In this document: positions 13,998 through 34,344 of the stretch, one piece after another
Numbering within the stretch: the first letter of the stretch is position 1
How the letters are laid out: each line of letters opens with the position of its first letter
DNA from: a virus
Virus genome (UHGV): UHGV-0115960
Length of the DNA: 38,642 nucleotides
Strand: one strand, 5' to 3'
Notes under the pieces: model-generated
The model's database searches: none
What the model saw: the letters and a program-made list of their open reading frames with translations, nothing else
Told to the model about the DNA's origin: nothing
Position numbers and translations under genes: made by a program

Positions 13998-14891
13998 TTA
14001 TTTTTTTGCCTTTTTAGCGGCGAAATACGGCGTCCAGTCACCAGTTTCCAGCGCCTTGGCTTTCAGTTTGTCGAGGTTATTGATTACTGCGCCGTTGCTC
14101 CCCTTAACTGTCGGGGTTGTGGCTGCCGTGGTTTTTGCTTTTGGCATGATTCTTGCCTTCGATTCGATACGTTCCAGCAGACGACCAATTGCTACGGGGT
14201 TGGTAGCTTCTGCCAGTTGCTTGCGCAGTTCAGCGTTGCGACCGAGCGCCAGAACAACGATTTCCGGCTTCTCTGACTCAAACAGGATCGCGTTTTGTGT
14301 CTCTATGGGGATTTCCTCGAGTACGGCCTGTTCAGCTTCCTGATAGCCAGGAACCTTGAGAGCCTTAACACGTTGCTGATATTTGGATAATCGCTCTTGA
14401 TAGGCAGCCTGAAGCTCCTGCTCCTTCTGCTTGCGAGCCATCTCCTGTTGCTGGTATTTGCCGTTGTCCTCCGCCCACTTAGCCATGCGTTGCTGGTAGA
14501 TTTCTTCATCGAAACCGATGTCCTCATCATCCAGTTTTGGCATTCGCGGTGGTTGAGTGATTACCGGCTGCTGCTCGACGGGTTTCTGAGACTGACGCAT
14601 CAGCTCTTTCAGCTCGCGGTCTTTCTCTTTAATCGTCTTGCGCAGGTGTTTTACCAGTCCATGCTCTGCGCTATCTTCGCTGGTTGGCGAATCCAGCTTT
14701 TCGTCACCAAAGTAGAATTCCTGTTCTGATTCGTCGTCATCAGTGTCAGTAGCTTCCTCTGCATCATTTCCTGAGGACTCACTGCCATCTGCTTTTTCGA
14801 CTTCTTCAGCCAGTTCGACATCATCAGGAATCTGCTCTGACGCGTCGGTTTCGATTTCAACTTCTGGTGTGTTTTCTGCCATCTGGTCCAT
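13998..14891 (-). CDS. Scaffolding protein (P22 gp8-like)
   Basis: 297 aa, acidic N-terminus, highly charged helical sequence, KK C-terminus; between portal and coat. Confidence 0.85.
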   Translation of the reverse strand: MDQMAENTPEVEIETDASEQIPDDVELAEEVEKADGSESSGNDAEEATDTDDDESEQEFYFGDEKLDSPTSEDSAEHGLVKHLRKTIKEKDRELKELMRQSQKPVEQQPVITQPPRMPKLDDEDIGFDEEIYQQRMAKWAEDNGKYQQQEMARKQKEQELQAAYQERLSKYQQRVKALKVPGYQEAEQAVLEEIPIETQNAILFESEKPEIVVLALGRNAELRKQLAEATNPVAIGRLLERIESKARIMPKAKTTAATTPTVKGSNGAVINNLDKLKAKALETGDWTPYFAAKKAKK

Positions 14892-29136: not shown

Positions 29137-29676
29137 TCATATTGCCCCCAGCATGGTGGTGACCATCGCCATCAATGGACCAGCCAGGTCCGGGTCCACA
29201 CGAAACATCGACACAATGCCTTCACTCATCTCCTTCAGTTTCTGGTGGCGTGGTGCGTTGAGAATGACAGCCTGTTTTGCCTCACTGAGTTCCTTTTCCA
29301 TTTCAGCCAGCCGAGCCATGAAGCTATCCTGCTCAACCAAGTGGCCGCGATATTCCAGCGGTAGTACCGCCAGAATTGCCGGGGTCAATTCACGCACGTT
29401 ATTTCGGTATTTTTCAGAATCGAATTTGTTATCGAGGAAGCGGAACAGCTTCTGGCGTGCACGGCTGACATCATCAGGGAAATCGATGGTGCCGCCGCCC
29501 TGTGCTCGATACTCATTCACAATGAGTGCGGCAACGACATCCTGATTATCTTCAGCCGACCAGGCGCGGACGGCATCACGGATTTTTTCGTGGCCTGGCA
29601 CCTGTTTTGTTTGAGAACGATTTATCACCGCTGTCGGGGTAAATCCGCTAGTCTGTTGGTATGTAAGTGGTTGCAT
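29137..29676 (-). CDS. YdaT-family protein at the cII position
   Basis: Segments IVNEYRAQGGGTIDFP and LTPAILAVLPLEYRGHL resemble recalled Rac YdaT; ATG with AAGGAG. Confidence 0.65.
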   Translation of the reverse strand: MQPLTYQQTSGFTPTAVINRSQTKQVPGHEKIRDAVRAWSAEDNQDVVAALIVNEYRAQGGGTIDFPDDVSRARQKLFRFLDNKFDSEKYRNNVRELTPAILAVLPLEYRGHLVEQDSFMARLAEMEKELSEAKQAVILNAPRHQKLKEMSEGIVSMFRVDPDLAGPLMAMVTTMLGAI

Positions 29677-29745
29677 AATTGACTCCTTTAGTTTGAATTG
29701 ACTGTTAAGTTGATTGCTTATTGTTAAAGAGCGTGAAATGGAAAT

Positions 29746-29976
29746 TTAAGCTGCGTTCTTTTCGGTGTGTGGAAACAACTTCGGAAGATCCGGGCGAATC
29801 TGGTATGCCTTCACTACTCCACCAGTAGCCGTAACAATGCTGCCGACATGTTCAGGGGATACCTTTGCTTTGTTGTGAAGCCACTTATAGACGGCCTGCT
29901 GCGAAACTTCACAGGCAGCGCCCAGTTTCTTTTGTGAACCAACGATATTGATCGCTGTTTTGATAGCTGGGTTCAT
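29746..29976 (-). CDS. Cro-like HTH regulator (YdaS-family)
   Basis: 76 aa, HTH GSQKKLGAACEVSQQAVYKW; divergent from cI across operator region; ATG with GGAGG. Confidence 0.75.
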   Translation of the reverse strand: MNPAIKTAINIVGSQKKLGAACEVSQQAVYKWLHNKAKVSPEHVGSIVTATGGVVKAYQIRPDLPKLFPHTEKNAA

Positions 29977-30080
29977 AACAACCTCCGTGGTTAATTTGAA
30001 TCAAGATTAAAACTATGGTTGTTTTTAGTCAACAACCATTTTCGTTTGATGGAATAAAACCTTGGTTGTACATTTGGACT
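29977..30080. promoter_or_regulatory. cI/cro divergent promoter-operator region (oR/pR/pRM equivalent)
   Basis: Perfect palindrome ATGGTTGTT-n7-AACAACCAT at about 30015-30039 plus additional AACAACC/GGTTGT half-sites. Confidence 0.65.
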
Positions 30081-30770
30081 ATGAAAACAACACTCTCAGA
30101 AAGACTTAAAGAAGCCAGATTAGCGCGAGGCCTTACACAAAAGGCGCTTGGGGATTTGGTCGGGGTTAGCCAAGCTGCTATTCAGAAAATCGAAACAGGG
30201 AAAGCTAACCAAACAACTAAAATCGTGGAGATCGCGAACGCTTTGGGTGTGCGCGCAGAATGGTTATCTTCTGGCGTTGGAAATATGTCAGACAGTACAG
30301 TGCAACCAATACAATCCACTGTCAGCCATTCCAAATACTTCAAGATTGACGTTCTTGATATAGAAGTGAGTGCCGGGCCGGGAGTCATCAACCGTGAGTT
30401 TGTAGAAGTCCTACGCTCGGTTGAGTACTCGTTTGACGATGCTCGTCACATGTTCGATGGCAGGAAGGCAGAAAATATCCGCATCATTAACGTACGCGGT
30501 GACAGCATGTCAGGAACGATCGAACCAGGTGATCTTTTGTTCGTTGATATCACTGTTAAATCTTTCGACGGTGATGGTATCTATGCGTTTCTGTACGACG
30601 ACACAGCCCATGTAAAGCGCCTGCAAATGATGAAGGATAAGCTGCTGGTTATCTCTGATAACAAGAGCTACTCACCGTGGGACCCGATCGAGAAAGACGA
30701 GATGAACCGGGTGTTTATCTTCGGTAAGGTTATTGGGAGCATGCCGCAGACATATAGGAAGCATGGTTAA
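30081..30770 (+). CDS. cI: CI-type prophage repressor (HTH plus LexA/S24-like autocleavage domain)
   Basis: HTH LTQKALGDLVGVSQAAIQKIE; C-terminal GDSMSGTIEPGDLLFVD...VKRL S24 peptidase motifs; track ORF start at 30015 lies inside operator, ATG 30081 preferred. Confidence 0.9.
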   Translation: MKTTLSERLKEARLARGLTQKALGDLVGVSQAAIQKIETGKANQTTKIVEIANALGVRAEWLSSGVGNMSDSTVQPIQSTVSHSKYFKIDVLDIEVSAGPGVINREFVEVLRSVEYSFDDARHMFDGRKAENIRIINVRGDSMSGTIEPGDLLFVDITVKSFDGDGIYAFLYDDTAHVKRLQMMKDKLLVISDNKSYSPWDPIEKDEMNRVFIFGKVIGSMPQTYRKHG

Positions 30771-30889
30771 AGTGAGGCTAAAAAACAGTTACAGCAATAG
30801 GCCTGTTGTTTTTCTTTAAACACGCAGTGTTAAACCGCTCTTTGAGATGCGGAGTAATGAGATGGAAGACTTGAATCACATAAGGGTTA

Positions 30890-31642
30890 GTGATGGAGTG
30901 CGTAGCGAGCAGCAATAGTGCAATACCTAATGTCGTTGAGGTAATACGTCGCATCAATGAAGGTTCCACTCAGCCATTTCTTTGCAAATGTGATGATGGG
31001 CAGTTGTATGTTTTGAAGTCAAAACCATCAATGCCCCCGAAAAATCTCTTAGCTGAGTTCATTTCGGCGTGTTTGGCTAATGATATCGGCCTTCCTTTAC
31101 CTGACTTTAAAATCGTATTTGTGCCAGAGGAACTTATAGAGTACTCACCTGATCTGCAGCAACAAATTTGTACAGGATATGCCTTTGCTTCATTGTTCAT
31201 TGACGGTGCAATAGCGTTAACGTTTACGCAGTCAAGAAACGAAACGATCATCCCAGTCGAACAGCAAAAATTAATCTATGTTTTTGATAAATGGATATTA
31301 AATGCAGACAGAACGCTTACTGACAAAGGTGGAAACGTTAACATCCTTTATGACATCAGTAACGATAAGTATTATCTGATTGACCATAATCTCTCATTTG
31401 ATCAGAATGCTGGACCTGAAGATTTTTCTGTGCACGTGTACGGCCCTGGTAACCGCAAATGGCAATATGATTTAGTGGATCGCGTAGAGTACCGCCAGAG
31501 GGTCGTTAACAGTTTACACAAGCTTCCTGCTATCCTTGACGAAATTCCAGAAGAGTGGATAGTAGATGAGGAGTTTTTACCTTTTGTCTGCACTACGCTA
31601 GACAAAGGTGATTGTGATGAATTTTGGAGCGCAATAGAATGA
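30890..31642 (+). CDS. Protein-kinase-like fold protein (HipA/aminoglycoside-phosphotransferase-like catalytic motifs), 250 aa, downstream of cI
   Basis: Candidate catalytic loop TDKGGNVNIL and downstream LIDHNLSFD about 20 residues later; candidate ATP-binding Lys in LYVLKSK; lower GC than backbone. Confidence 0.55.
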   Translation: MMECVASSNSAIPNVVEVIRRINEGSTQPFLCKCDDGQLYVLKSKPSMPPKNLLAEFISACLANDIGLPLPDFKIVFVPEELIEYSPDLQQQICTGYAFASLFIDGAIALTFTQSRNETIIPVEQQKLIYVFDKWILNADRTLTDKGGNVNILYDISNDKYYLIDHNLSFDQNAGPEDFSVHVYGPGNRKWQYDLVDRVEYRQRVVNSLHKLPAILDEIPEEWIVDEEFLPFVCTTLDKGDCDEFWSAIE

Positions 31643-32466
31643 CAACTCCATGCCTATATAGCATCGTTCGCTATGCGCCTTATGCGGAGACTGAAGAGTT
31701 CGCAAACATAGGCGTACTTCTGTGCGCGCCAAAAGAAAATTACTTTGATTTCCAGCTCACAAAGCGAAATGACTCTCGTGTAAAGAATTTTTTCCATGAT
31801 GATTGTATTTTCCCTGTAGCAAAAGACTCAATACAAAGAGAACTACAGTTCGCAAAAATGCATGCGACCCAGATTGTTGGACATCAACAACTTGCACAAT
31901 TCTTCAGATATTTTACAAACAAAAAAGAATCAATTTTTCAGTTCAGTTCTACGAGAGTGATTCTCAGCGAAAACCCAAAAGAAGAGCTGGCCCGCATTTA
32001 CAATAAATATGTAAACCACTCTGACTACACAAAAGAGCGCCGTGAAGATGTTCTAGCCAGAGAGCTAAAACGAAGTATCGATAGAATAGATGGATTGAAG
32101 AACCTCTTCAAACAAGCAACCATTGATGGGTATTTCGCAAAGTTCTCAATGCCATTGGTCGCCAAGAAGCATGACAGGATCCAATGTGCCATCAAACCTC
32201 TGGCATTCACTCAAGCTGAACCAGGAAAAATGATGGAGCATAGTGATACTTGGGTGATGAGAATAACTCGAGCAGCAGAAGAAAACCTGCTTTCACTTGA
32301 TGACATTTTATTCACAATTGAAACTCCTGAATCACCAAACTCAGGCCAAAGCAAAGTTATTGACATCATAAAGAGAACTATGGATGCTAAGAAAATAAAT
32401 CATATACCTGCATCCAACCACAAAGAAACTATTGATTTTGCAAAAAAAATACTTCCCCAAGTTTAA
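31639..32466 (+). CDS. DUF3037-like protein (275 aa), translationally coupled to the kinase-like gene
   Basis: N-terminal YSIVRYAPYAETEEFANIGVLL resembles DUF3037 signature (from memory); ATGA start/stop overlap with upstream gene. Confidence 0.6.
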   Translation: MTTPCLYSIVRYAPYAETEEFANIGVLLCAPKENYFDFQLTKRNDSRVKNFFHDDCIFPVAKDSIQRELQFAKMHATQIVGHQQLAQFFRYFTNKKESIFQFSSTRVILSENPKEELARIYNKYVNHSDYTKERREDVLARELKRSIDRIDGLKNLFKQATIDGYFAKFSMPLVAKKHDRIQCAIKPLAFTQAEPGKMMEHSDTWVMRITRAAEENLLSLDDILFTIETPESPNSGQSKVIDIIKRTMDAKKINHIPASNHKETIDFAKKILPQV

Positions 32467-32500
32467 AATTTATTTTTGTATGTGATATTCCTTATTAATA

Positions 32501-32530
32501 ACCCGGCCACCGTGCCGGGTTTTCTTTTGC
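32501..32530 (+). terminator. Rho-independent terminator ending the cI-kinase-DUF3037 operon (tImm equivalent)
   Basis: CCCGGCcaccgtGCCGGG followed by TTTTCTTTT. Confidence 0.75.
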
Positions 32531-32599
32531 CTCCCCTCATCACACACACCGTTCAAAAAACCACCACAACCTCGCTTCAGTTATCGCTATGCAATTCAA

Positions 32600-32770
32600 G
32601 TCACAAAATAAATCCATCCCAAATACAACCAGTTATATCTAAAACAACCAATAAAACAACTTATGTTGTTGACGATAATACAACTATAGTTTTAAATAAG
32701 TTCATCGCAACAACACAATCATACGGCAACCACCTGATTCACCGTTGCGATGACCGCTTAGATCCGCAGC
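32600..32770 (+). promoter_or_regulatory. pL/oL-like region: operator half-sites and putative promoter
   Basis: Palindrome AACAACttatGTTGTT at about 32655-32670 and further AACAACC copies match oR half-site; TTGACG-17-TTAAAT about 32669-32697. Confidence 0.45.
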
Positions 32771-33181
32771 TTGAATTTCAGCAGGCTTCGGGGAGTGCGA
32801 GGGGTGAAACGGACGCGTGAACGTCGGTGTGACCAGCTGAAATCAACACAACACTTTATACCTCAGTCGCTTCAAGGAGGCGGCTTAGTTATGACAACCG
32901 GCGGCCATCCACCGCCTGAATACGCGCAGAAGTCTCTATATGTTCAGCAGCCCAGCTTACGGGCAGGAGTTTTTATGGTTCATCAACATTACGGAACGCA
33001 GACCGTTAATCGCGGTGCGGTCATGCCAGGAATGCTGGTCAAACACAAAGATGGTACCTGGACTGCATCAGCTAATTTACGCGGACGGCTTTATCTGCAT
33101 CGCGGCATCGAGCGCACTTATACCCGTGACTTGCTCGTGGAAGTTTTTCTCGACGGACGCGGCAACGGCCTGAATCACTAA
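32771..33181 (+). CDS. N-like antiterminator (arginine-rich motif near N-terminus); start uncertain (TTG 32771, GTG 32795 or 32804)
   Basis: Arg-rich motif [14 protein letters not shown] resembles N-protein ARMs; first gene after pL-like region. Confidence 0.5.
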
Positions 33182-33256
33182 CCCCCTTTCCTGTTTTCCT
33201 AATCAGCCTGGCATTTCGCGGGCGATATTTTCACAGCCATTTTCAGGAGTTCAGCC

Positions 33257-33553
33257 ATGAACGCTTATTACATTCAGGATCGTCTTGAGGCTCAGAGCTG
33301 GGCGCGTCACTACCAGCAGATCGCCCGTGAAGAGAAAGAGGCAGAACTGGCAGACGACATGGAAAAAGGCCTGCCCCAGCACCTGTTTGAATCGCTATGC
33401 ATCGATCATTTGCAACGCCACGGGGTCAGCAAAAAAGCCATTACCCGTGCGTTCGATGACGATGTTGAGTTTCAGGAGCGCATGGCAGAACACATCCGGT
33501 ACATGGTTGAAACCATTGCTCACCACCAGGTTGATATTGATTCAGAGGTATAA
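33257..33553 (+). CDS. gam: Gam (short GamS form, RecBCD inhibitor)
   Basis: 98 aa near-identical to recalled C-terminal portion of lambda Gam starting at [21 protein letters not shown]. Confidence 0.9.
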
Positions 33554-33558
33554 AACGG

Positions 33559-34344
33559 ATGAGTACAGCACTCGCAACGCTGGCTGGGAAGCTGGCTGAA
33601 CGTGTCGGCATGGATTCTGTCGACCCACAGGAACTGATCACCACTCTTCGCCAGACGGCATTTAAAGGTGATGCCAGCGATGCGCAGTTCATCGCATTGT
33701 TGATCGTCGCCAACCAGTACGGCCTTAATCCGTGGACGAAAGAAATTTACGCCTTCCCTGACAAGCAGAACGGCATCGTTCCGGTGGTGGGCGTTGATGG
33801 CTGGTCCCGCATCATCAATGAAAACCAGCAGTTTGATGGCATGGACTTTGAGCAGGACAATGAATCCTGCACATGCCGGATTTACCGCAAAGACCGCAAT
33901 CATCCGATCTGCGTTACCGAGTGGATGGATGAATGCCGCCGCGAACCATTCAAAACCCGCGAAGGCAGAGAAATCACGGGGCCGTGGCAGTCGCATCCCA
34001 AACGGATGTTACGACATAAAGCCATGATTCAGTGTGCCCGTCTCGCCTTCGGATTTGCTGGTATCTATGACAAGGATGAAGCCGAGCGCATTGTCGAAAA
34101 TACCGCATACACTGCAGAACGTCAGCCGGAACGCGACATCACTCCGGTTAACGATGAAACCATGCAGGAGATTAACACTCTGCTGATTGCCCTGGATAAA
34201 ACATGGGATGACGACTTATTGCCGCTCTGTTCCCAGATATTTCGCCGCGACATTCGCGCATCGTCAGAACTGACACAGGCCGAAGCAGTGAAAGCTCTTG
34301 GATTCCTGAAACAGAAAGCCACTGAGCAGAAGGTGGCAGCATGA
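33559..34344 (+). CDS. bet: Bet (Red-beta single-strand annealing protein)
   Basis: 261 aa near-identical to recalled lambda Bet ([48 protein letters not shown]...). Confidence 0.97.

Follow-up and report, generated by a model that had tools for sequence, protein, structure and literature searches.

A cI-linked hipA–hipD gene pair in virus genome UHGV-0115960 corresponds to the anti-phage system HipAD (DS-6)

Introduction

The RexAB proteins of phage lambda and the Stk kinase of phage 933W are lysogen-expressed exclusion functions whose genes lie next to cI, ahead of the terminator that precedes pL. The present work concerns hipA and hipD, two genes found at the equivalent position in virus genome UHGV-0115960, which was analysed as a single stretch of 38,642 nucleotides (the window, to which all positions refer). 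The pair shares with RexAB and Stk its location between cI and a pre-pL terminator and, in all likelihood, the repressor-linked logic of action against superinfecting phages. Genomic position is the only common ground, however; there is no sequence relationship, and no RexA, RexB or eukaryotic Pkinase match was found for either protein in Pfam, PHROG or PADLOC.

The closest described systems combine a HipA-like kinase with a DUF3037 protein. One of these, DS-6, was reported in the DefensePredictor study (DeWeirdt et al., Science 2026, PMC13092281), where it is described as "independently discovered" by Brenes & Laub (Cell Host Microbe 2025, 33:1004), who gave it the name HipAD. Carried on a low-copy plasmid with its native promoter, DS-6 protects ∼10^4–10^5-fold against phage Bas1, with −log10 efficiency of plating (EOP) values that fall from 3.9 and 5.2 in the wild type to 0.88 in the D139A mutant (Table S7, PMC13092281), so that mutation of the predicted catalytic residue abolishes defence (PMC13092281). 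AlphaFold3 supports a complex between its two proteins, DS-6A and DS-6B, with an interface predicted template modelling score (ipTM) of 0.76–0.79, and gives weaker support for DNA binding by DS-6B (ipTM 0.67) (PMC13092281). A second HipA-like/DUF3037 pair, encoded beside Retron-Sda1, gives a defence against Bas51 that does not depend on the retron; deletion of its kinase gene abolishes defence and deletion of its DUF3037 gene is toxic (PMC12548924). The name of the kinase recalls the canonical HipA of E. coli, which phosphorylates GltX and causes persistence (PMC13092281).

Results and Discussion

Identity of the pair

The kinase encoded in the window is identical to DS-6A (WP_000389051.1; sequences in Table S8 of PMC13092281) at all 249 residues, and its partner is identical to DS-6B (WP_000210934.1) at 274 of 275, having Leu at position 156 in place of Val. 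Asp139, the residue whose change to Ala kills DS-6 defence, is present in the window kinase. The DUF3037 partner is encoded immediately 3′ of the kinase with an ATGA overlap, the same gene order and overlap as in HipAD/DS-6, and both copies are borne by E. coli prophages. The two adjacent genes, with their 4-bp overlap, also match both hidden Markov models (HMMs) of the PADLOC candidate system PDC-M66, HipA matching PDC-M66A (E 6e-15) and HipD matching PDC-M66B (E 3.4e-16).

A megablast search of positions 30780–32540 against GenBank phages identified, with 99.8% identity along the whole query, Escherichia phage PhiR5_1 (PV340545.1), whose record annotates the pair as "HipA toxin" and "HipD antitoxin". 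The prophage surroundings of the two copies differ, since the flanking mosaic of PhiR5_1 aligns with only 42% of window positions 14000–38642, at 97% identity. Retron-Sda1 is accompanied by a pair of the same composition, a HipA_2 kinase followed by a DUF3037 protein, but the relationship between the PDC-M66/Sda1 pair and the window pair is distant, with HMM E-values of only 1e-15, and the Sda1 copy adjoins the retron reverse transcriptase whereas the window copy is linked to cI in a lambdoid prophage.

We conclude, with a probability of about 0.92, that the pair is a prophage-borne HipAD (DS-6, PDC-M66) anti-phage system, carried as cargo by a lambdoid prophage in the interval that separates its cI gene from the tIMM-like terminator. 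The initial annotation of this DNA had proposed an exclusion or anti-phage function, and published work with the same kinase, and with a partner that has a single substitution, bears this out; it had not recognised the pair as a characterised, named system, although the pair is one, being equivalent to HipAD, DS-6 and the PADLOC candidate PDC-M66. HipAD is already characterised, validated and named, and its presence here is not a discovery.

The coordinates of the pair and of the elements around it are collected in Table 1.

Table 1. Features of the cI–pL interval in the window
Feature	Coordinates	Strand	Remarks
OR-like operator palindrome GTTGT-N9-ACAAC	30018..30036	not assigned	Between cro and cI
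cI-type prophage repressor	30081..30770	+	Pfam HTH_3 E 5e-13, Peptidase_S24 E 1e-18; context of the cassette, not a member of it
Exchangeable cargo cassette (rexAB-equivalent slot) with hipA and hipD	30771..32500	+	Sibling-phage alignments, GC
cI–hipA spacer, 122 bp	30771..30892	+	No terminator-like site
hipA, 249-aa HipA_2-family Ser/Thr-kinase-like toxin	30893..31642	+	= DS-6A, WP_000389051.1
ATGA stop/start overlap of hipA and hipD	31639..31642	+	Translational coupling
hipD, 275-aa two-domain partner/antitoxin	31639..32466	+	= DS-6B, WP_000210934.1 with V156L
Intrinsic terminator AACCCGGC-loop-GCCGGGTT + TTTTCTTTT	32500..32530	+	Phage backbone; right junction of the cargo slot
OL/pL-like operator GTTGT-N10-ACAAC with TTGACG −35-like hexamer	32665..32684	+	

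The kinase HipA

HipA matches the Pfam family HipA_2 (PF20613, "HipA-like kinase") over residues 1–239 of the 240-residue model, with an E-value of 9.7e-77 and a score of 257.9 bits against a gathering cut-off of 27. Neither protein could be connected to a solved structure by sequence; when both proteins and their profiles were compared with the chains in the PDB, the best matches had E-values of 0.2–2 and were to unrelated proteins, with no match to a PDB HipA. Because these searches gave nothing meaningful, folds were assigned from AlphaFold2 models built from homolog alignments. The model of HipA has a predicted local distance difference test (pLDDT) score of 89 and a predicted template modelling (pTM) score of 0.88. 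In Foldseek comparisons it matches PI4KII-alpha (E 1.3e-6, TM 0.60) and the H. pylori Ser/Thr kinase CtkA (E 4.9e-6), followed by Shewanella HipA (E 4e-4), E. coli HipA (E 3e-3) and HipT (E 5e-3).

The model shows the two lobes of a kinase fold, with K42 as the ATP-binding Lys, D139 as the catalytic-loop Asp and D164 as the metal-binding Asp. All three belong to a set of residues that are invariant in 31 homologs, namely K42, D132, N137, D139, R140, G146, G147, N148, N150 and the consecutive D164-H165-N166. We take the catalytic loop to be of the DR...N type, like that of the PI3/4-kinases. D144, the Asp of the TDKGGN segment, varies among the 31 homologs and was rejected as the catalytic residue on that ground; D139, in the sequence NADRTL, is invariant and is in addition the site of the published loss-of-defence mutant, and is therefore identified as the catalytic Asp. 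The kinase-like fold that the initial annotation had read from short motifs is thus upheld by both the HipA_2 match and the structural similarities to PI4KII-alpha, CtkA, HipA and HipT. Of the motifs themselves, the VLK lysine (K42) and the IDHN loop (D164-H165-N166) prove to be invariant, whereas the catalytic Asp had been misplaced in TDKGGN.

The hipA product is a small kinase of the PI3/4-kinase/HipA superfamily. Comparison with the canonical HipBA system of E. coli K-12 suggests that "HipA-like" should be taken to mean membership of the same superfamily only, the relationship to canonical HipA itself being remote. The two toxin kinases have the same broad fold (Foldseek E-values for HipA of 4e-4 to 3e-3), and the window kinase would, like canonical HipA, be neutralised by a co-encoded partner that is predicted to bind DNA. 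The window HipA, however, has 249 residues compared with 440 in canonical HipA, and lacks the HipA N-terminal subdomains. Neither Pfam HipA_C nor Couple_hipA matches it at E ≤ 1, and an hhalign comparison with K-12 HipA gives a probability of 17% over 25 columns. The gene order is also different, hipB preceding hipA in K-12 and encoding a helix-turn-helix (HTH) antitoxin, whereas the window partner is a DUF3037 protein that is encoded downstream and has no HTH match in Pfam. The hallmarks of a canonical HipBA type II toxin–antitoxin (TA) system, a toxin with HipA_C and Couple_hipA domains and an upstream HTH protein HipB, are thus absent from the window pair.

The partner HipD

The N-terminal part of HipD, residues 7–125, matches Pfam DUF3037 (PF11236) over the full model (1–118 of 118) with an E-value of 7.2e-24 and a score of 84.7 bits against a gathering cut-off of 22.6, in agreement with the DUF3037 signature noted when the DNA was first read. 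Other family resources have little to say about either protein; NCBIfam has no model for HipA or HipD, and PHROGs lists both families as 'unknown function'.

The C-terminal part, residues ∼132–275, is tentatively assigned as a restriction-endonuclease-like domain without acidic catalytic residues. Its Foldseek matches all have E-values of at least 0.02. At the positions of the PD-(D/E)XK motif, each of the 35 homologs aligned has P172 followed by Leu or Phe, and (A/V/T/I/L)-I-K186 where ExK would be expected; only E136, P172 and K186 are invariant in the domain, and the canonical acidic catalytic residues of the motif were not found in any of the 35. These features provide moderate evidence that the domain is a degenerate nuclease fold, probably non-catalytic. 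Binding of nucleic acid, in a sensing or autoregulatory capacity, would be a more probable role for it than cleavage.

The cargo slot between cI and the terminator

The + strand carries two open reading frames (ORFs) directly 3′ of the cI-type repressor, as seen from the ORF table and the sequence of the window. Translation of hipA could begin at GTG 30890 or ATG 30893, and it is the ATG version that yields the 249-residue product matching the database proteins. The ATGA overlap between the two genes is kept in all 11 homologous loci compared, which extend from E. coli to Pseudomonas and Sphingomonas and so cover three bacterial orders. The G+C content of hipA–hipD is 0.38–0.42, compared with 0.51–0.54 in the genes for recombination and replication on either side.

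Sibling phages from the same GenBank series, represented by the loci PV340567.1 3500-11500 (L013) and PV340555.1 3500-11500 (L014), align to the window up to the cI stop at 30769/30770 and again from the terminator stem at 32501/32502. Between these junctions the cargo is different; PhiR47_2 has GevT/GevA in the slot and PhiR26_1 has a lipoprotein gene, and in both the terminator is kept behind the different cargo. In a P22-like prophage (L006), where the hipAD genes are only ∼49% identical to those of the window, the hairpin that follows them (L006 6817-6849; window 32499-32532) is 94% identical over 34 nt. Since the terminator is retained after differing cargos, it is an element of the phage backbone, and the interval 30771–32500 is an exchangeable cargo cassette. 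The hairpin may serve as a recombination junction for cargo exchange.

These comparisons account for most of what had been said of the locus beforehand. Two coupled genes on the same strand after the CI repressor, with an ATGA overlap at 31639–31642, are indeed present, and the pair is AT-rich relative to its flanks as described. The proposal of a rexAB-equivalent slot filled by acquisition of a cassette fits the swap junctions at the cI stop and the terminator stem in the sibling phages, and the strong terminator said to close the pair before a pL-like region can be recognised in a hairpin at 32500–32521 with its T-run, upstream of the OL/pL-like operator.

Control elements around the pair

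The terminator hairpin (32500–32521) has an 8-bp stem with 6 G-C pairs and is followed by the tail TTTTCTTTT; its folding z-score is −2.3. In the 122-bp spacer between cI and hipA, by comparison, a consensus scan revealed no terminator-like site, and folding was no better than for shuffled sequences (z +1.4). With no terminator, the spacer would allow read-through from the cI transcript. A promoter belonging to the cassette itself is probably also located within 30771–30892. A scan of 29500–33600 against Rfam returned no RNA family.

The motif GTTGT-N8-11-ACAAC occurs twice in the whole 38.6-kb window, at 30018–30036 and 32665–32684, where 0.10 copies would be expected by chance. The two copies look like OR-like and OL/pL-like operators respectively, and as they flank cI and the pair, hipA and hipD sit between cI and pL.

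The start of cI is annotated in two ways. The start codon of the longest ORF, ATG 30015, falls in an operator-like, perfect 9-bp palindrome, ATGGTTGTT-N7-AACAACCAT, at 30015–30039. The Prokaryotic Genome Annotation Pipeline (PGAP) uses the equivalent of 30081, giving 229 residues (a 690-bp gene in E. coli CP131), whereas the PhiR5_1 record uses a 251-residue form. An ORF that started at ATG 30015 would run over the OR-like palindrome, which favours 30081 as the start, and the shorter form is probably right.

On the − strand, the gene at 29137–29676 is labelled 'cII' in the PhiR5_1 record, but PGAP annotation of E. coli genomes makes its product a 'toxin YdaT domain-containing protein', and the two annotations conflict. 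Between the OL/pL-like operator and kil (32540–32880) there is no recognisable ORF for an N antiterminator, nor is one annotated in the PhiR5_1 record; in P22-like relatives (L006) the position between the pL region and kil is taken by an N36-family gene.

Distribution and genomic context

Among 5,426 complete E. coli genomes, 284 have the pair, in each case as a single chromosomal copy, and 282 of these copies are at least 99% identical; PGAP names the products "HipA family kinase" and "DUF3037 domain-containing protein". Every E. coli context examined shows the order cro – cI – hipA – hipD – kil – gam – bet – exo, including that of an IS1-truncated prophage remnant. In one E. coli copy (L003) the linked cI has a different N-terminal and cro region. 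The pair adjoins a prophage repressor in all four enterobacterial contexts examined. In Klebsiella phage Kp4864-1 an 84%-identical HipD is encoded 3′ of a mosaic cI, and pairs of 49–52% identity follow the repressor in P22-like prophages and Salmonella phage SW-37. Distant pairs in Pseudomonas and Sphingomonas retain the HipA_2–DUF3037 gene order but are not linked to cI, one being chromosomal and the other lying in an integrase-linked island. The initial annotation had suggested surveying the neighbourhoods of homologs for co-occurrence and for linkage to prophage cI. Co-occurrence is found at every locus examined, the pairing being strict, but linkage to cI is a property of the enterobacterial copies that the Pseudomonas and Sphingomonas pairs do not share. 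We conclude that the pair is a mobile two-gene module, for which cI linkage is the mode of carriage in enterobacterial lambdoid phages.

Some copies are found in damaged surroundings or are themselves damaged. In E. coli CP131_Sichuan (NZ_CP053720.1 3530351-3543941) the prophage is an IS1-truncated remnant without replication and late genes that retains cro-cI-hipAD-kil-gam-bet-exo-int, its hipAD being 100% identical to the window over 30880–32470. In Salmonella phage SW-37 (L004 4268-5001) hipA has a frameshift around codons 37–46, and in E. coli 1335KP (H23, NZ_CM173848.1) an IS3 insertion splits the kinase gene; hipD is intact in both. Disruption of hipA alone, as in SW-37 and 1335KP, is what a toxic kinase would lead one to expect.

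Proposed mechanism and alternative readings

A plausible sequence of events can be put together from these features. In the lysogen, transcripts of the pair would arise through cI read-through, from a cassette promoter within the 122-bp spacer, or in both ways, and the ATGA coupling would ensure that HipA and HipD are made in a fixed ratio. HipD would bind HipA and keep the kinase inactive, consistent with the published AlphaFold3 complex. Infection by a sensitive phage would then release or activate HipA, which would phosphorylate a target essential to the host, or perhaps one belonging to the phage, so that the infection aborts; abortive infection is the hypothesis of the published authors. 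The predicted dead nuclease-fold domain of HipD could be the part that binds nucleic acid, in a sensing or autoregulatory role. Kinase-dependent protection against Bas1 has been shown in the literature with the same kinase and a near-identical partner, and toxin behaviour of the kinase, with neutralisation by the DUF3037 protein, has been shown for a homolog.

Three points weigh against identifying the pair as a working HipAD system of this kind. HipD has L156 where DS-6B has Val, a conservative difference at a position where several residues occur among homologs. No kinase substrate, phage trigger or abortive-infection phenotype is reported in the DefensePredictor and Retron-Sda1 papers. Finally, expression in the lysogen from the cI transcript is something that we infer.

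The strong Bas1 phenotype has to be set against the possibility that the pair is mainly a TA addiction module, stabilising the prophage or its remnant, with defence as an incidental laboratory phenotype. Such a role would fit the toxicity that follows deletion of the DUF3037 gene in the homologous pair (PMC12548924), the persistence of hipAD in the IS1-truncated remnant and the occupation of the same slot in sibling phages by another TA pair, GevT/GevA. Protection of 10^4–10^5-fold that depends on the kinase and is obtained with the native promoter at low plasmid copy number is difficult to regard as incidental, however, and both the classical lysogen-expressed exclusion position of the slot and the nearly invariant copy in 284 genomes argue for defence; addiction and defence are in any case not mutually exclusive. 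We consider it very improbable that addiction is the main role. The kinase dependence bears equally on the idea that the effector role falls to HipD, as an active PD-(D/E)XK nuclease with phage DNA as its substrate, and that the kinase only regulates it. The D139A kinase mutant loses defence, deletion of the kinase gene in the Retron-Sda1-linked pair abolishes it, and deletion of the DUF3037 gene there is toxic rather than harmless (PMC12548924). None of the 35 homologs has the canonical acidic residues, and the Foldseek E-values never fall below 0.02. An active nuclease role for HipD was rejected on the missing acidic residues, and a nuclease-effector system as a whole is a shade less probable still than one devoted to addiction.

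The kinase might instead alter host physiology for the benefit of the lysogen, for example by causing persistence or arresting growth as chromosomal HipA does, or by regulating prophage induction, and have no anti-phage role. Canonical HipA offers a precedent in its phosphorylation of GltX and induction of persistence (PMC13092281), and a gene next to cI is well placed for expression in the lysogen. This is nevertheless the least probable of the alternatives, given that an anti-phage phenotype has been demonstrated, that there is almost no sequence relation to canonical HipA (the 25-column hhalign match), and that PI4KII and CtkA, not HipA, are the closest structural relatives. It is conceivable, if rather doubtful, that HipAD acts as a sensor–effector complex and not as a TA system with a labile antitoxin. 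The predicted dead domain of HipD would then recognise some structure of phage nucleic acid, for instance in DNA that is being injected or replicated, and so release the PI4K-like kinase, whose target could also differ from the GltX-type targets of canonical HipA.

Implications

As a discovery the pair carries no weight, since cloning, phage challenge and mutagenesis of the same proteins have been published, names are in use for them, and GenBank and PADLOC label them. The locus does serve as a positive control for the reading of raw sequence, in that a defence system was correctly picked out by position and motifs. For the phages themselves, the comparison with sibling genomes maps to the base pair a swappable slot for defence genes or other cargo, which in this lambdoid lineage lies between the end of cI and the tIMM-like terminator.

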